Origin: Thermoproteota archaeon
GTDB taxonomy: Archaea > Thermoproteota > EX4484-205 > JAAOZP01
Length of the DNA stretch: 19,751 nucleotides
Assembly: GCA_049700215.1 (NCBI GenBank)
Contig: JBNAVT010000016.1
Coordinates: forward strand, 1-19,751
Direction: 5' to 3'
A program made the translations under genes and the position numbers. Positions 1 to 18,890 of this stretch are shown here, piece by piece. The notes under the pieces were generated by a model, which was not told the origin of the DNA, did not search any database, and saw nothing but the letters and a program-made list of their open reading frames with translations. The number at the start of each line of letters is the position of its first letter. Within the stretch, counting starts at the first letter, position 1.

Positions 1-481
1 CAAGCTCCGTTAAACCCTTAACAGTCAGCGTGCCTCCTACGCCAAGCTTACTCCCCTTTACACCCCCCTGAACAGACATAGTTCCGCCCACGCTTATGTT
101 TTCAGCATCCACGTCGCCCCCTGATTCTAAAACTCCTCCGACACCTATACTCCTGCATTTCAAACCATTACCAACCTTAACCACTTTCCCAACATCCACG
201 TCCTCGGCTTCAAGCCTTCCACTTACACGCAGCTCGCCATCCTCAAGACTGACGTATCTCTCCACGATAAGATCGCCCTGAACATTAATCTTCCCACCGT
301 TTTCAAGACTAAGGCTGTGGGCATGCAGGCTGGAAAGAATATTGCAATCCCCTTCAAACTCCACATTTCCCTTCACGATAATTGCTTCACCAGTCTTCGC
401 CTTGATGGTTGAATGCTCCCCGACGAAGAGGTCTTCCTCAGAAACGCCTATTTCCACGGTTTTCCTCGGCTCAATCCTCAT
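1..481 (-). CDS. Bactofilin/CcmA-like beta-helix repeat protein (partial; runs off the left end)
   Basis: Not in the ORF track. My translation from ATG 481 is MRIEPRKTVEIGVSEEDLFVGEHSTIKAKTGEAIIVKGNVEFEGDC...VGKVVKVGNGLKCRSIG VGGVLESGGDVDAENIS VGGTMSVQGGVKGSKLG VGGTLTVKGLTEL, open for 160 codons. It shows 17-aa V/G-rich periodicity, with GGTGGG upstream and a TTTAAA box near 520-525. Confidence 0.8.
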   Translation of the reverse strand, partial: MRIEPRKTVEIGVSEEDLFVGEHSTIKAKTGEAIIVKGNVEFEGDCNILSSLHAHSLSLENGGKINVQGDLIVERYVSLEDGELRVSGRLEAEDVDVGKVVKVGNGLKCRSIGVGGVLESGGDVDAENISVGGTMSVQGGVKGSKLGVGGTLTVKGLTEL

Positions 482-671: not shown

Positions 672-1979
672 TTGCTAACTAGGAGGGGAAAGCTAACATA
701 CGCCATGGGGAGGCTCGGCTCCTCAACCCTCTTGTCCCTTATAGATCTCGCGACGTTCTGGTTCTACTGGGATTTTTTGAAGCTGAGTGGTTTTCTAACC
801 GGCGTGGCATTCGCCATCGGAAAACTCGTCATAGCCTTTTTCGGCTGGTACTTCGGCTACCTGAGCGACATAACTGTGTCGAAGAGATGGGGGAGACGCA
901 GACAGTATGTTTTAGCGGGCAGCCTGCTTCTAGCATTTTCAACCATCATGATATTCATGCCGAGCTACTTCATACCGGTTACGGATGAAACCCTGTTGTT
1001 CGTGTACGCGACTTTTTTCATTGGCCTTGCGAACATGAGCTACGGGCTTCTAAGCACGCCCTACATGGCGTGGCTTGCGGAAATCGTCGGCCCCGAGGAT
1101 CGAGTTACGGTCTCAGCATACCAGAACATTTTCGGCATGATGGCGCAAATCGTTGGAATACCCGTCGGCTTCCTGCTTCCAACGCTTCTGAAAACAGGCT
1201 CCCTCGCTTTCCTAGGGCTACTACTGGCTCTAGCCGTCTTTGAAATAGTATTGTACATGCCGGCTGTCCTCAAGATAAGGGAGGAGGAGAAACCGATTCC
1301 GAAACCCAGTGTTCGGAGAGAGCTCTCCATACTTTGGAGCAACAGGAACTACCGGGCGTGGCTTGCCCTCCAAGGAGCAATGTCTATTCCAACAGCGGTT
1401 CTCGCAAGCCTGGTTATAAGCTATCTGCAAAGAGTCCTGGGCCTAGGTGACGTTGAGTATATGGCAGTGGGAGGCCTCATGCTCCTGTTAACCATAGTGC
1501 TTTTCTTCGTCTGGGCAAGGATAGCTAGGAAAACCGGGAAGAAGAAGCCACTAGTAACGTCTCTCATGATCCTGGTGGTTTTCCTGCCTCTAACACTAGT
1601 CTTCGGCCAGCCGGTTCTAAACTCTGTCCCCAGGGTGATTCAAGCAGTCCTGTTCGTCGCATTCGTGGGAGCAGGGATTTCAGGCTGGTACCTCTTGCCG
1701 AACCCTGTCACGGCAGACATGGCGCAGGAAGACGAGTTGTCTAAGAGGGAGGCTCGCGCAGGCAGCTACGTCGGCCTGGTCAGCGTGCCGCTGAACATAC
1801 TGCAAGCCTTAGCCCGCTACATATCTGGCCTCCTTGCAGACCTGCCATCAGCCCCGGGTCAGACTTACTCCATGGGGTTGTTGCTATGGGGTCCAGTGTC
1901 CTCAGTAACGTTAATCCCTTGCCTGTTAATCCTAATAAAATACGTGGAGACAGATCCGTTAAGGAGAATCGCAAAATAA
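672..1979 (+). CDS. MFS transporter, glycoside-pentoside-hexuronide (MelB/GPH)-like sugar:cation symporter
   Basis: About 12 hydrophobic segments, the GPH motif GYLSDITVSKRWGRRRQY, and ADMAQEDE...REARAGSY. A TTG start at 672 follows GGTGA (660-664); the ORF track start is 645. Confidence 0.88.
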   Translation: MLTRRGKLTYAMGRLGSSTLLSLIDLATFWFYWDFLKLSGFLTGVAFAIGKLVIAFFGWYFGYLSDITVSKRWGRRRQYVLAGSLLLAFSTIMIFMPSYFIPVTDETLLFVYATFFIGLANMSYGLLSTPYMAWLAEIVGPEDRVTVSAYQNIFGMMAQIVGIPVGFLLPTLLKTGSLAFLGLLLALAVFEIVLYMPAVLKIREEEKPIPKPSVRRELSILWSNRNYRAWLALQGAMSIPTAVLASLVISYLQRVLGLGDVEYMAVGGLMLLLTIVLFFVWARIARKTGKKKPLVTSLMILVVFLPLTLVFGQPVLNSVPRVIQAVLFVAFVGAGISGWYLLPNPVTADMAQEDELSKREARAGSYVGLVSVPLNILQALARYISGLLADLPSAPGQTYSMGLLLWGPVSSVTLIPCLLILIKYVETDPLRRIAK

Positions 1980-1983
1980 CGCG

Positions 1984-2011
1984 TTTTCTCACTCCTATAA
2001 CGAGTGGAAAA
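1984..2011. terminator. Stem-loop between convergent genes, possible terminator
   Basis: TTTTC-T-CACTC (1984-1994) pairs with GAGTG-GAAAA (2002-2011) around a 7-nt loop, just after the MFS stop codon. Confidence 0.35.
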
Positions 2012-2044
2012 TAAAGAATAGCTTCATGTTTAAAAACTAGGATA

Positions 2045-3409
2045 TTAGGGGAATTTAATGCCGCTTTTTGAGCCCGATTTCCCCCCGTAGACTTTTTCAA
2101 CGAACGAGTCTCTCACCGGCTTGTAAACCTGGTTGAAAAACTTCTGCTGGTCGAGCAAAACATCCTGTGGAAATTCTTCGAGATACTGTAAAGCCCTTCT
2201 CCAGGCCTCCTCATAGGGAACTACCTCGTTTACCCTTCTAACTATTTGCTCATCGTAGTCACGTGGAGTCTGTTTAGCATTACCTATCGTTAGCCACCCG
2301 TCCTCCGACAAGTAGGCAGTCTCGTTTCCCAGTTGGAAAACGTTTCTCTCCTCAACCTGCCTAGGGGGCTTAACAGCACCCCTCCGGCTGGGAGGCTTCT
2401 TAGCTTCAACCCCTCTCTGCTTGGCCCAAGCGTAGAATATTGCCCTGTTCAAGCCGAATGACTTGGATTTCTCAATATCTCTTGTTAAAAGGAAGCATCG
2501 CGCAGCCTGCAGCAGCGCCATAACCTGGAACCTTCCAAGCCTAAGCACTTCCCCTCCGCTACTTCTCACGCTGCCCGACGGCATGGGAGCCACTCTTTTG
2601 AAATATCCTCCGACTGCATATAAGGCTTTTTCAGCAAGCTCATCCGCCTCACCGGCTTCAAAATCCGTGTAAACCGCTCTATGCCTGAAGCTCCCCGGGT
2701 TGACCCATGAAAGATCAAAGTCGTTCATATCATCGGGTTTGAAGCAGACGCATGAGTAGTCCAGTTCCCTGTGAAGAGATAGCGGAAGAGTAAAAACCCG
2801 TTTCAAATCCATCTTGTTCTCGACCTTGGCGCCGGCGGCTAAAGTATTGAGCTTAGGCTTAACCATCCTAGTGACATACTCGACTACTGCGAAGGCAGCG
2901 TCAAGAGGATGATGCTTTTTAAGAAACTCCCTGGAAAAAGCTTCTTCAGAAACATGCACGTGACACCCCCGTCCGCTCCATTTAAGGTATACTGACTTCA
3001 CGACCTTCTCCTTCTCAAGCTCCTCAACTATCAGCCTGCAAACAGCCAGGGTTTCACGCCACCTTTCAACATCATTATCCACATCCCAGGTTGGGGTGGA
3101 GCGGGAAATATTGGAAACATCCTCCAGGTCCTCGTTTACCGAGAGCCTAACGTATTTATTAGCCGAGCCGTAGAAAGACCTGGGTTTAGCAAACCAGAAT
3201 CCTCTGAGCAGCCTGTCGATATCGCTTGAATCCTTGAATCTAAGCGGCGACCCGTCTCTACCATACCTCATGAAAACCCTTCCCCTAGAACTGCCTTCAA
3301 TAGCTATCCACCTGTCTCTTCCGTAGTTGAAGAGCTCCTCCGCAACCCTTGGATGAGAGTAGTACTCGAAAACCCAATCGACGCTATTCTGGCAGCTGGG
3401 CTTTGCCAT
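2045..3409 (-). CDS. Archaeo-eukaryotic primase (PriS/Prim-Pol-like) domain protein fused to an uncharacterised C-terminal domain
   Basis: AEP motif I (TWDVD), motif II (KWSGRGCHVH) and a motif III region (KVENKMDLKRVFTLPLSLH, compare PriS D..RL.RLP.SLH). A G/S/P linker is followed by a roughly 160-aa domain containing RFQVMALLQAAR...FGLNRAIFYAWAK. Confidence 0.75.
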   Translation of the reverse strand: MAKPSCQNSVDWVFEYYSHPRVAEELFNYGRDRWIAIEGSSRGRVFMRYGRDGSPLRFKDSSDIDRLLRGFWFAKPRSFYGSANKYVRLSVNEDLEDVSNISRSTPTWDVDNDVERWRETLAVCRLIVEELEKEKVVKSVYLKWSGRGCHVHVSEEAFSREFLKKHHPLDAAFAVVEYVTRMVKPKLNTLAAGAKVENKMDLKRVFTLPLSLHRELDYSCVCFKPDDMNDFDLSWVNPGSFRHRAVYTDFEAGEADELAEKALYAVGGYFKRVAPMPSGSVRSSGGEVLRLGRFQVMALLQAARCFLLTRDIEKSKSFGLNRAIFYAWAKQRGVEAKKPPSRRGAVKPPRQVEERNVFQLGNETAYLSEDGWLTIGNAKQTPRDYDEQIVRRVNEVVPYEEAWRRALQYLEEFPQDVLLDQQKFFNQVYKPVRDSFVEKVYGGKSGSKSGIKFP

Positions 3410-3511
3410 ACAGTGTTTTCAGCATAATTTTAAAATAAACTTTTCGAGCTGCGCGGCAGCCCAGTACCGTGTAAAAAGTTTAATAATAGCGCGCGCTAAA
3501 GAACCGTTAAA

Positions 3512-10943: not shown

Positions 10944-11579
10944 ATGATAGAGAGGTGCCTACCGGTTGAAAGCGTAGTTGACTTCGGGGGTATGTGGGAG
11001 GTGGATGGCCTTTATTCTAGAGTGTGCAGGGAGAGGTTTAAAATAGCTCGAGTAACCATGGTGGACAAGTATGTGTCGGAAAACTGGGTGAGAAACCCGC
11101 GTTTAAGAAGGGATGTCGACTTCAGGAAAGGGGATTTTTCAGATGAGAGATTCATGTCTACTTTGGAAGAGCCTTACGACCTTGCGTTAGCATACGATGT
11201 TCTCCCCCACCAAATGGATTTAATACACACCTTGACCATAATGCTGTCGAAGACAAGGAAATTCTTCCTGATCACGCAGCCCATACTTCCTGAGAAAACA
11301 ATGCCGTTTCGCAACTGCCTGGTTCTGCTCTCAGGCTCAAAGGCCTACAGCCTAATCCCGTTTAGAGAAAAATGGGCTGGGGAGACGGATTACTGGGCTA
11401 ATTTTTCAAACGCAGCTATAAGGGATACGAGCCGCTGGCTGTGGGGCATGACCCCCTCGTTTATAGAAAGCATCATGAAGAGTTGCGGTTGGAAAATTGT
11501 TTACAGAGAATTTTGGCGGGGACGGTTGCCCAAATCCTCGAAATGGAGGATATGCGGCTTAATCTTTAAAAAGTCTTAA
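10944..11579 (+). CDS. Class I SAM-dependent methyltransferase-like protein (possibly truncated)
   Basis: Motif I-like VVDFGGMWEVDG, acidic end of beta2 (TMVD), FRKGDF, and YDLALAYDVLPH. Confidence 0.72.
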   Translation: MIERCLPVESVVDFGGMWEVDGLYSRVCRERFKIARVTMVDKYVSENWVRNPRLRRDVDFRKGDFSDERFMSTLEEPYDLALAYDVLPHQMDLIHTLTIMLSKTRKFFLITQPILPEKTMPFRNCLVLLSGSKAYSLIPFREKWAGETDYWANFSNAAIRDTSRWLWGMTPSFIESIMKSCGWKIVYREFWRGRLPKSSKWRICGLIFKKS

Positions 11580-17013: not shown

Positions 17014-17838
17014 TTAAGGCATGAATTGCTCAAGGAACTTTTTCGCCACCAGCAGGCCTTCCTTATACTCGTAGAACGGATCCTCGTGCTCAATGCTTAA
17101 AGCATAATCATACTTGTGTTTCTTAAGAATAGTTATGAAGTCAGCCCAGTCTAGCTCGCCGAAGCCTGGAAGCCTGTGCGGACACCATCCTTCGCTCCGT
17201 ATCCCGTTTTCCGCAACCCTGTCCCAGAGTATTTGAGCATCCTTGACGTGAGTATGGTATATTCTGTCTCCAAACTCGTCAGCAGCCCTGACCGCGTCTA
17301 TCATCTGGCAGATCAGATGGCTAGGGTCGAACTCTAGGCCCAGGTTCCTAGACGGGATTGCTTCAAATATTCTCCTCCAGATGTCGGGCCTGTAGGCAAT
17401 GTTCCCAGGACAGTTTTCAATAGCTATCCTGATCCCCCGGTCCTCGGCAAGGTTTATTATTTCAGGCCAGGTTTTCCCAATCTCCCTAATATTGTCCTCA
17501 ACGCTCCCAGGGTAGAGCCCAATCCAGCCGGTTACAACCGGAACCTCTATCCTGTAAGCCGCCTCTATGAGATCCTTGAAAAACCCTTTAGCAACCCGCC
17601 TGTTCTCCTCCACAGGGTCAATCGGGTTCCCGTAGAAGCCTATTGCGGAGACTATTACCTTCGACGAGCTTAAAACATCCTTGACCACCCTAGGGTTTGA
17701 AACAACCTCCTTAACTTTGAAGAAACTGCTTCCTGGACCCGTTCCTATAGAGATGGATTTGAAGCCTTTAGCCTCAGCCCATTCAAGAGTCTTCCTCAAA
17801 TCCCCCAGCTGCCCGCTTGTTAGGAACCCTATGAACAT
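17014..17838 (-). CDS. Sugar phosphate isomerase/epimerase (xylose isomerase-like TIM barrel)
   Basis: Metal-ligand motifs AIENCP, LEFDPSHL, HTHVKD and SIEHED; also RLPGFGELDW. Confidence 0.9.
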   Translation of the reverse strand: MFIGFLTSGQLGDLRKTLEWAEAKGFKSISIGTGPGSSFFKVKEVVSNPRVVKDVLSSSKVIVSAIGFYGNPIDPVEENRRVAKGFFKDLIEAAYRIEVPVVTGWIGLYPGSVEDNIREIGKTWPEIINLAEDRGIRIAIENCPGNIAYRPDIWRRIFEAIPSRNLGLEFDPSHLICQMIDAVRAADEFGDRIYHTHVKDAQILWDRVAENGIRSEGWCPHRLPGFGELDWADFITILKKHKYDYALSIEHEDPFYEYKEGLLVAKKFLEQFMP

Positions 17839-18056: not shown

Positions 18057-18890
18057 ATGCCCAAGTACAGGATTGGTACCTCTACCTACAGTTTCTGGCA
18101 TTTCCTTCCCGAGAAAGTCCCCATAGAACTCGTAATGGAGAAATCGCGGGAGCTCGACCTTGACGGGGTTGAAATACTTCACGTGCAGATGGAGAGCGAA
18201 AGCGACAGTTACATAAACAATTTAAAAAGCTTGGCGTTAAGCCTTGGTCTGGATATTTATGGTCTTGCAATACATCAGAATTTCGTGAAGCCAAGCGGAG
18301 AACAGAGGGAAAAAGAAATAGAACATACTAAGCGATGCCTAGAGATCGCCTATAAACTCGGTGCTCCAGCTATCAGATTGAATTCCGGACGCTGGGGGAC
18401 GATAAGGAGTTTCGACGAGCTGATGGCAAACAAGGGGAGGGAACCGCCTATTCCAGGCTACACCGACGAGGATGCGCTTAAATGGGTAGTGGAATCCATA
18501 GAGAAATGCCTGCCTGTTGCAGAGAGCTTGGGGGTGGTAATGGCTTTGGAGAATCACTGGGGGTTGACGGCTACGCCTGAAGGAGTTGTGAAAATAGTTG
18601 AGAGCGTCAACTCGAAATGGCTGAAGGTTCTGATGGATACTGGAAACTTCATCGAGGACACGTATAACAGCCTGAGGAAAATAGCGCCCCATACGGTTCT
18701 GGTTCACGTGAAAACCTACTATGGTGGAGGAGTATGGTATGAGCTGGACATAGATTACTCAAGAGTATTTGAAATTCTCAGGGAAGCCGGATACCGGGGG
18801 TATCTTTCAATAGAGTTTGAAGGAAAGGAGGATGCGGTTTCCGGAGTGTCTAGGACGAGGAAAATGCTGCTTGAACACATGGATGAGTAA
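18057..18890 (+). CDS. Sugar phosphate isomerase/epimerase (xylose isomerase-like TIM barrel)
   Basis: STYSF, DGVEIL, ALENHWG, MDTGNF, VHVK and GYRGYLSIEFEG. Confidence 0.9.
   Translation: MPKYRIGTSTYSFWHFLPEKVPIELVMEKSRELDLDGVEILHVQMESESDSYINNLKSLALSLGLDIYGLAIHQNFVKPSGEQREKEIEHTKRCLEIAYKLGAPAIRLNSGRWGTIRSFDELMANKGREPPIPGYTDEDALKWVVESIEKCLPVAESLGVVMALENHWGLTATPEGVVKIVESVNSKWLKVLMDTGNFIEDTYNSLRKIAPHTVLVHVKTYYGGGVWYELDIDYSRVFEILREAGYRGYLSIEFEGKEDAVSGVSRTRKMLLEHMDE

Follow-up and report, generated by a model that had tools for sequence, protein, structure and literature searches.

The gene analysed here lies on the minus strand of a 19,751-nucleotide stretch of DNA from a Thermoproteota archaeon (contig JBNAVT010000016.1 of assembly GCA_049700215.1; this whole stretch is called the window below). 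It encodes a 454-residue protein, P0001, in which a catalytic domain that belongs to the superfamily of archaeo-eukaryotic primases (AEP), the N-domain, is joined by a flexible linker to a conserved basic C-terminal domain of unrecognised fold, the C-domain. A reading made earlier from the letters of the window (the sequence-only reading) had proposed an undescribed archaeal primase-polymerase (Prim-Pol) for repair or damage tolerance. The proposal is supported in part: the protein is an intact AEP of a kind for which no published account was found, and a fold ranking that places the repair enzymes Prim-PolC and LigD-PolDom above the replicative catalytic subunit PriS fits the lean towards repair. 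That the enzyme is catalytically active, that its C-domain binds DNA and that it serves in repair is what we infer from the data given below. We put the chances at about even that the fused protein is a chromosomal repair or damage-tolerance Prim-Pol, which would be targeted to its substrate by a new nucleic-acid-binding module. A Ku-independent enzyme of this type is favoured because the AEP domain is intact, constrained and repair-shaped, the C-domain is basic, the gene is solitary and vertically inherited, and the genome encodes a 3'-phosphoesterase and DNA ligases.

Four alignments were used: A1, of 25 full-length homologues; A2, of the full-length protein, with 43 aligned sequences; A3, of the C-domain; and A4, of the N-domain, with 26 sequences. 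The features of the gene are as follows (positions in the window).

2045-3409, minus strand: whole gene of the two-domain protein P0001 (454 residues), with an ATG start, a stop codon at 2045-2047 and full-length homologues
2585-3409, minus strand: AEP (primase-polymerase) catalytic domain, residues 1-275
3077-3088, minus strand: AEP motif I, W108-D109-V110-D111, with the DxD metal ligands; D109 and D111 invariant in 25/25 (A1) and 26/26 (A4)
2954-2980, minus strand: AEP motif II, WSGRGCHVH, residues 144-152; S145, G146, G148 and H150 invariant
2771-2821, minus strand: AEP motif III region, ENKMDLKRVFTLPLSLH, residues 197-213; E197, N198, D201, K203, R204, P209, L210 and H213 invariant
2543-2584, minus strand: flexible interdomain linker, residues 276-289; pLDDT below 50 at 277-286, length and sequence variable in A1
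2081-2542, minus strand: conserved basic C-domain whose fold is unrecognised, spanning residues 290-443; two long helices, four-strand beta meander and five-helix bundle
2342-2410, minus strand: K/R-rich disordered loop within the C-domain, residues 334-356; pLDDT below 50 at 334-339 and 345-354, variable yet basic

The gene is real and conserved. Among 7994 candidates scored, 601 proteins of similar length match P0001 at E ≤ 1e-3 (best E 4.9e-275), and 260 cluster representatives match among 1.84 billion, a level well beyond chance. Every string quoted in the sequence-only reading was located in this open reading frame (ORF) on the minus strand. None of the 120 homologues listed has a precomputed Pfam domain, and the named ones are called 'hypothetical protein' with the exception of P0090, one JGI record, which is named 'DNA primase catalytic subunit'. 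Searches of Pfam and NCBIfam with the single sequence gave no match at E ≤ 1; against PDB sequences, P0001 matched only TPR-design noise and the full-length profile A2 gave no match.

The AEP domain

AEP enzymes have three motifs in common, namely DxD and sGxGxH with an acidic residue as the third. All three are present in the N-domain as D109/D111, S145-G146-R147-G148-x-H150 and D201, and are invariant in 25/25 sequences of A1 and 26/26 of A4. The full set of residues that is invariant in the 25 full-length homologues comprises D109, D111, S145, G146, G148 and H150, together with E197, N198, D201, K203, R204, P209, L210 and H213. The three motif strings that had been read as intact (WDVD at 108-111, WSGRGCHVH at 144-152 and ENKMDLKRVFTLPLSLH at 197-213) are therefore confirmed as such. 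Residues S145, G146, R147, G148, H150, V151 and H152 are common to the genome's own PriS and its two other AEPs; D201, R204 and P209 also occur in this PriS, with which motifs II and III can be aligned, and the A4 profile puts the motif III stretch against motif III of human PriS.

An AlphaFold2 model built with 43 homologues has a mean pLDDT of 89.2, and low confidence is limited to residues 1-4, 277-286, 334-354 and 444-454. In this predicted model, the N-domain has the AEP catalytic fold. A Foldseek search of the PDB returned 65 matches at E ≤ 1e-3, and all matches listed are AEPs (PriS, LigD-PolDom, Prim-PolC and CAPP). Model, fold search and motifs agree with the sequence-only reading that the N-terminal part is an intact AEP.

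In the ranking by fold, Prim-PolC (6sa0_A) comes first with a Z score of 20.6 (3.7 Å over 253 residues), followed by the Methanocella non-homologous end-joining (NHEJ) polymerase 5dmu (19.9; 2.9 Å over 230), Pseudomonas aeruginosa LigD-Pol 2fao (19.8) and the Mycobacterium tuberculosis PolDom (18.8-19.2). Human Pri1 (up to 15.5), archaeal PriS (14.7-15.2) and CAPP (12.3-13.0) follow at lower scores. Since Prim-PolC and LigD-PolDom head the ranking, the N-domain is, in its predicted shape, a compact repair-type AEP.

Judged by sequence, the N-domain is intermediate between AEP families. Weak Pfam matches occur in some family members (PF01896 in 8/43, PF21686 in 7/43), and the best matches of the N-domain profile to PDB sequences are PriS chains (E 0.037-0.1). 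The invariant arginine residues R33, R48 and R77 of the N-terminal sheet are candidates for a 5'-phosphate pocket or synapsis loops of the LigD type. The N-domain has a pI of 7.05 and a net charge of 0.

The C-domain

The linker string APMPSGSVRSSGG (residues 274-286) is followed by the C-domain, whose first part holds the strings GRFQVMALLQAAR (residues 292-304) and KSFGLNRAIFYAWAKQRG (residues 316-333). Modelled alone with 33 stand-alone homologues, the C-domain reaches a pLDDT of 88.1 and a pTM of 0.81, and in the model two long helices are followed by the basic, disordered loop, a beta meander of four strands and a bundle of five helices. All 34/34 sequences of the domain are basic (median pI 9.76, minimum 8.98); that of the window protein has a pI of 9.64 and a net charge of +8. 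At a threshold of 85% over these 34 sequences, the conserved columns are M297, Q301, R304, S317, G319, N321, R322, Y326 and K330, and further E363, G376, Q380, R392, W403, Y429, R433 and D434. Most of them vary little or not at all among the 43 full-length proteins, and it is the C-domain invariants that sustain the mean column identity of A2.

No database gave the C-domain a name. No Pfam family matched more than one of the 34 members, and neither PHROG nor PADLOC families matched. The best E value was 1.3 in a Foldseek search of the PDB and 0.28 in a fold search of BFVD, with none at E ≤ 1e-3; the A3 profile made three chance-level matches to PDB sequences (E 0.22-1.1), and a search of the ESM Atlas gave no usable match. 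Comparison with the genome's own PriL by hhalign gave a probability of 0.2%. These results bear out what the sequence-only reading had said of the C-terminal part, namely that it is a separate domain of basic character, and in these searches no characterised primase accessory domain matched it. A predicted complex of the N-domain (A4) with the C-domain (A3) scored 0.01 in both runs against a mark of 0.32, a value that carries no weight either way.

One way to account for such a domain is that the protein is a self-sufficient, specialised primase. The C-domain would then be a functional analogue of the C-terminal domain (CTD) of PriL, of PriX or of the helix-bundle domains of plasmid primases, and it would hold the initiating nucleotide or the template for a de novo start, for example in replication restart or origin-independent initiation. 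AEP primases generally require a helical helper module (PolpTN2, PMC3973330; N. equitans primase, PMC10250227; PriX, PMC9258230). The invariant basic and polar residues of helices 1 and 2 (R293, Q301, R304, K316, S317, N321, R322 and K330) and the pair R433-D434 would suit such a function, and the solved proteins nearest to the N-domain profile by sequence are PriS chains (E 0.037-0.1). Against it, none of the Cys or His columns of the C-domain reaches 85% conservation over the 34 sequences, so there is no Fe-S cluster, and the catalytic domain ranks with the repair polymerases, approximately 5 Z units above PriS. A PriL- or PriX-like helper role of the C-domain is possible, without positive support from these comparisons, and we regard the self-sufficient primase as an unlikely, though not negligible, explanation.

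Some fused proteins end in a tail that resembles a PCNA-interacting peptide (PIP) box. By a strict definition, it is found in 5/119 fused proteins, compared with 1.4 expected from shuffled tails; it occurs in 0/120 stand-alone proteins and not in the window protein. All five belong to one subclade (P0061, P0066, P0071, P0084 and P0093) with the ending Q-x-T-L-D-E/Q-L-F, which resembles the PIP consensus. Since the tail is confined to this subclade, it was rejected as a family trait.

Replicative primase and other AEPs of the genome

The genome (2.09 Mb in 85 contigs, 94.6% complete) encodes a separate canonical primase, a point that the sequence-only reading had asked to be confirmed. PriL (342 aa), PriS (376 aa; PF01896, E 1.6e-18) and Gins51 lie in a row in a PriL-PriS-Gins51 operon on contig C25. 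A whole-genome search with PF01896 gave matches on C25, C17 and C64 and none in the window, and a canonical PriS is also present in 5/5 other genomes that encode the fused protein. The name of P0090 and the weak PF01896 matches in 8/43 members would be expected if the fused protein were a divergent form of the organism's replicative PriS. We give this virtually no credence: the operon lies elsewhere in the genome, the window protein has no PF01896 match at E ≤ 1, and the family was not found in 233/401 genomes sampled from the phylum.

The gene had been taken for a lone AEP paralogue, which it is not, as two further AEPs besides PriS are encoded on contigs C17 and C38. The C17 gene (241-1062, plus strand, of locus L002) encodes a 273-aa PF01896-like AEP (E 1.6e-7); it adjoins a gene for a double-zinc-ribbon membrane protein (1112-2020, plus strand). 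The C38 gene encodes a 304-aa paralogue that has no C-domain, with 40% identity to the N-domain of the window protein and an E value of 2.4e-76 to the A2 profile. It forms a pair with an ATPase gene (1396-2310 and 2307-3140, both minus strand, of locus L106), the start of the AEP gene overlapping the stop of the ATPase gene. The ATPase (277 aa) is KaiC-like (PF06745, E 2.6e-57), with weaker matches to RecA, Rad51, DnaB_C and AAA_25. A homologous ATPase gene lies directly upstream of C-domain-less paralogues at 21/38 loci of the phylum, on the same strand in 19. From this arrangement, the C38-type AEP and its ATPase look like an undescribed, translationally coupled two-gene module.

The C38-type sister paralogue is present in many genomes that have the fused AEP. 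In a tree of 77 N-domains, 39/39 fused sequences fall on one side of a branch with a support of 99, and on the other side are the KaiC-linked forms (21), extended forms of approximately 400 aa (11) and other unfused forms (6). The two groups, being split by this branch, are therefore old paralogues. The extended paralogues (loci L128-L134 and L137-L140, in other genomes) carry a 110-aa C-terminal extension, to which hhalign found no similarity in the C-domain; in these genomes, the C-domain has a gene of its own at a distant locus.

Distribution and inheritance

The A2 profile matched in 168/401 genomes sampled from the phylum of the window (132/335 of those of high quality; 77/161 genera) and in 15/16 genomes of the window's own genus. 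It had no match in several large families of the phylum (0/57, 0/12 and 0/12). In the phylum of an Odinarchaeota-labelled metagenome-assembled genome (MAG), 40/201 genomes matched. Within a collection of species-level genomes, a relative is encoded in 397/442 pattern matches. The best 80 of these 397 include Brockarchaeota-labelled MAGs of the window's own clade, with up to 79-92% identity, as well as genomes labelled Nitrososphaerota, Bathyarchaeia, Nezhaarchaeales, Methanomethylicia, Korarchaeia-like, Thermofilaceae, Desulfurococcaceae and Culexarchaeia, and the Asgard labels Odin, Baldr, Njord, Asgardarchaeum and Promethearchaeati.

The window protein shares 46-50% identity over nearly its full length with relatives from genomes labelled Odin, Nezha, Methanomethylicia, Bathy and Kor, whereas the genome's PriS shares 29-41% with PriS of the same five genomes, in local segments. 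Of the two, the fused protein is therefore slower to evolve than the replicative catalytic subunit. A quick maximum-likelihood tree built from 79 fused proteins places the window protein in a clade of 10 rows (support 100) and every Asgard-labelled row in one clade of 13 (support 99), and clustering is largely by lineage. Inheritance is chromosomal, vertical and non-mobile.

Plasmids and viruses commonly use AEPs as replication proteins, AEPs also occur in CRISPR adaptation (CAPP), and the gene could accordingly be a remnant or component of a mobile element, a virus or a defence system. The pairing of the sister paralogue with a KaiC/RecA-like ATPase resembles a primase-helicase module, and fusions of an AEP to accessory domains are typical of mobile elements according to one survey (Kazlauskas 2018, PMC5862659). 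The searches point the other way. None of 43 pattern matches in IMG/VR was confirmed as a relative, plasmid and phage searches found no relative of the fused protein, and it matches no PADLOC or PHROG family. No cas locus of the kind that marks CAPP lies in or beside the gene, the scanned genes of the window include no integrase, cas gene or sign of a tRNA-flanked island, the neighbours are of housekeeping type, and the G+C content is even (0.45-0.53). With a distribution that follows lineages, a mobile or defence origin appears very improbable.

Repair function and its alternatives

A fused Prim-Pol acting in repair or damage tolerance would work as follows. The C-domain would bind nucleic acid or a DNA-bound partner and so position the enzyme; D109, D111 and D201 of the AEP domain would perform two-metal nucleotidyl transfer, with S145-G-R-G-x-H150, K203-R204 and H213 holding the incoming nucleotide. 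The enzyme could then fill short gaps, extend primers or re-prime damaged or stalled DNA, and it would do so beside the replicative PriS-PriL primase. Three findings that had been named beforehand as fatal to the proposal (a missing AEP fold, no other PriS in the genome, or an already characterised accessory domain) did not turn up. Possible partners are encoded in the genome, namely a stand-alone LigD_N 3'-phosphoesterase (E 5.5e-39) and two ATP-dependent DNA ligases, the ligases on contigs other than that of the window; the phosphoesterase and ligase genes are at C7:2552-3010 (plus strand), C3:71070-71666 and C20:31055-31639.

Several observations weigh against this function. Ku gave no match at E ≤ 1 in the 94.6%-complete genome. 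The best genome-wide match to PF21686, the family of the archaeal NHEJ polymerase, has an E value of 0.23 and is a different gene; the window protein itself fails the thresholds of both PF21686 and PF01896. LigD_N is found in 141/401 genomes of the phylum and does not co-vary with the AEP: one family (f7) has the AEP in 9/16 genomes and the phosphoesterase in 0/16, another (f15) the AEP in 1/25 and the phosphoesterase in 21/25. The AEP family and PolY co-occur less often than independence predicts (both in 30 of the 401 genomes, AEP only in 138, PolY only in 143, neither in 90), a trend that loses significance when families are compared (Spearman -0.20, p 0.28, 30 families); PolY and the fused AEP are both present in the genome of the window. 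When the ORFs within 6 kb on each side of the fused gene were clustered over 80 loci, no conserved neighbour emerged, and guilt by association is therefore uninformative. The top true neighbour cluster (10/80 loci) is the Yip1 gene, in the window's clade only, and two larger clusters are antisense shadow ORFs within the gene. The remaining adverse points come from the C-domain, which 5/10 genomes with the free form encode without a match to the N-domain profile at E ≤ 0.01 (completeness 91, 93, 57, 88 and 97%); among the other five, one has a marginal match (E 0.0086) and four have N-domain genes elsewhere. In the Asgard sample, 22/40 positive genomes show only the free C-domain. Finally, in 9/43 of the aligned fused homologues DxD, SGxGxH and the motif III Asp and Arg are all lost.

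Linkage of the AEP to the LigD_N phosphoesterase was rejected as a general association, with a phosphoesterase neighbour at 1/38 N-domain-only loci and at no fused or C-domain-only locus. A distance of 5-8 kb separates a LigD_N gene from the gene of the fused AEP in one genus, and LigD_N directly follows the KaiC-AEP pair in one genome (locus L115).

Profiling the C-domain, as the sequence-only reading had suggested, uncovered a large independent family. Free C-domain proteins of approximately 160-175 aa (about 165 aa) that start with M..GRFQVMA are common. Among 7999 candidates scored, the profile matched at least 2403 clusters with E ≤ 1e-5, all of them unnamed or 'hypothetical', and a match to the C-domain alone was found in 121/401 genomes of the phylum. 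The domain is free-standing in 8/8 genomes of sister families in the window's order and fused in the window's genus. No N-domain gene lies within 4 kb at any of 22 stand-alone loci (0/22), and neither these nor a later set of 42 loci has a neighbour conserved beyond single lineages. Two candidate neighbours were set aside as local synteny or promiscuous families: an ABC-transporter ATPase cluster (10/42 loci) and an Fpg/Nei glycosylase at six related Asgard loci.

The fused homologues without AEP motifs (P0150, P0153, P0154, P0156, P0159, P0164, P0171, P0176 and P0188; AEP-dead below) are, from their sequences, apparent pseudo-enzymes that retain the AEP scaffold. The C-domain motifs GRFxVMALLQAAR, KSFGLNRAIFYA and VYxPxRD are nearly unchanged in 43/43 fused homologues, these nine included, so that selection on the C-domain is independent of AEP catalysis in some lineages. 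The conserved core function may therefore be that of the C-domain and not polymerisation. P0174, a more divergent fused form, has a collinear weak alignment to the N-domain profile (E 0.011), its motifs gone. In a further protein, P0187 (401 aa), the AEP domain is represented by its C-terminal half, which comes after a methyltransferase domain of the FkbM type (PF05050); this could be a real fusion or an artefact of gene calling.

With a free family, its presence in genomes that show no member of this AEP family and its retention in AEP-dead fusions, the C-domain is more than the AEP accessory that it had been taken for. This family also bears on the self-sufficient primase, in both directions: free C-domain proteins of genomes without this AEP could serve the canonical PriS in trans, and AEP-dead fusions fit poorly with a pure initiation helper. 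The same observations raise the question of whether the C-domain itself is the functional centre, as a DNA- or RNA-binding factor or an enzyme for which the AEP is optional (active here, dead or absent elsewhere). The main role of the protein would then be other than DNA synthesis, which would agree with the absence of the AEP from most members (at least 2403 stand-alone clusters compared with 601 full-length matches), with the 121/401 genomes of the phylum and the existence of C-domain-only genomes, with the AEP-dead fusions in which the C-domain motifs persist, and with an A2 column identity that rests on C-domain invariants. However, the AEP motifs are fully intact in the window protein and in 34/43 homologues, which implies selection on catalysis in the window's branch. 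In addition, the fused AEP domains form one well-supported clade (39/39 rows, support 99), which marks the fusion as an old one that has been maintained stably. We consider a function centred on the C-domain improbable for the window protein, if worth keeping in view, and retain the repair or damage-tolerance Prim-Pol.

A broader and rather doubtful conjecture is that the C-domain is an unrecognised DNA-transaction module of TACK and Asgard archaea, acting in cis when fused to an AEP and in trans as the free 165-aa protein. If so, it would be a new helper of primases or polymerases, or a sensor of DNA ends or gaps, that works with canonical PriS-PriL or other enzymes, and it would supply a part so far missing from replication restart or repair in archaea. 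With the sister AEP that is linked to a KaiC ATPase, it would then make up a second system for priming, outside replication, in the archaeal lineages closest to eukaryotes.

Comparison with known AEP systems

Prim-PolC is associated with LigC and excision-repair genes. Among known enzymes, that of Mycobacterium smegmatis (PDB 5op0, 6sa0 and 6sa1) has the closest overall fold to the predicted AEP domain of the window protein, with an identity of only 13-14% and no sequence-level match. It has no 155-aa C-domain, whereas the window protein has one and is archaeal, its family spread over TACK and Asgard lineages. No ligase lies in the window and no neighbour is conserved in the 80 loci, unlike the gene context of Prim-PolC. 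LigD-PolDom and the archaeal NHEJ polymerase (2fao, 2irx and 5dmu; PF21686) work with Ku and a ligase; the window protein has no PF21686 match, Ku was not found in its genome, and ligase and phosphoesterase are neither fused nor adjacent. It also differs from PriS (PF01896), as it has no PF01896 match and no Zn-knuckle cysteines and is not encoded beside PriL. The window protein is shaped like Prim-PolC and LigD-PolDom and would work like them, but by sequence models and gene association it falls outside these two families and PriS; it is best classed as a new branch within the AEP-proper group. Its closest paralogue in the genome, the C38 AEP, has the same invariant motifs over a domain that is 40% identical, no C-domain and a preceding KaiC-like ATPase.

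PolpTN2 of plasmid pTN2 and the primase of Nanoarchaeum equitans combine, like the window protein, an AEP and a C-terminal accessory domain in one chain (PMC3973330 and PMC10250227). Their C-terminal parts are related to PriL, whereas the C-domain described here has neither PriL similarity nor Fe-S cysteines. Also, the window gene is chromosomal and coexists with PriS-PriL, in contrast to a plasmid-borne enzyme or a sole primase. Searches of the literature accessible to us, which excludes supplementary tables and Iyer et al. 2005, found no account of the fused family or of the C-domain; the accessible parts of PMC5862659, PMC9258230, PMC4158269, PMC12988326 and PMC3914693 contain none of the fused family.

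Outside the replisome, AEPs act in NHEJ, in repriming by PrimPol and in CRISPR adaptation, and such enzymes have repeatedly opened new biology. The fusion serves as a Rosetta stone that links the chemistry of DNA or RNA synthesis with a very large family of orphan archaeal proteins of 165 aa, and it yields the first testable hypothesis for that family. Genetically tractable model archaea may lack the fused family, which, if so, could explain why it has been overlooked. Its characterisation could reveal how damage is tolerated in archaea that have no PolY or Ku, and whether the primases of archaea have helper subunits other than PriL and PriX.

The window and its other genes

The gene is divergent from a Yip1-family gene and convergent with a gene for an MFS transporter, and is therefore probably a separate transcription unit. 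One further feature lies upstream of it.

3424-3439, minus strand: TATA-like A/T-rich element TTTATTTTAAAATTAT, 15-30 nt 5' of the ATG, read from the sequence

The position of TTTATTTTAAAATTAT suggests a putative promoter of the gene's own, with a leader that would be short or absent.

Pfam scans of 19 window ORFs found, as the sequence-only reading had stated, no priL, Ku, ligase, helicase, cas or integrase gene; smaller ORFs lie outside these scans. The families identified are an MFS transporter, Yip1, an ATP-grasp protein, Rpe, a P-type ATPase, an HflX-like GTPase, a glycosidase, AKR, SOD, a flavodoxin-like protein and 5-FTHF cyclo-ligase. Two genes belong to no Pfam family (10944-11579, plus strand, 211 aa; and 2-481, minus strand, 160 aa, which continues past the end of the window). 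At the other end of the window, two xylose-isomerase-like TIM-barrel (AP_endonuc_2) genes are divergently oriented, at 17014-17838 on the minus strand and 18057-18890 on the plus strand.

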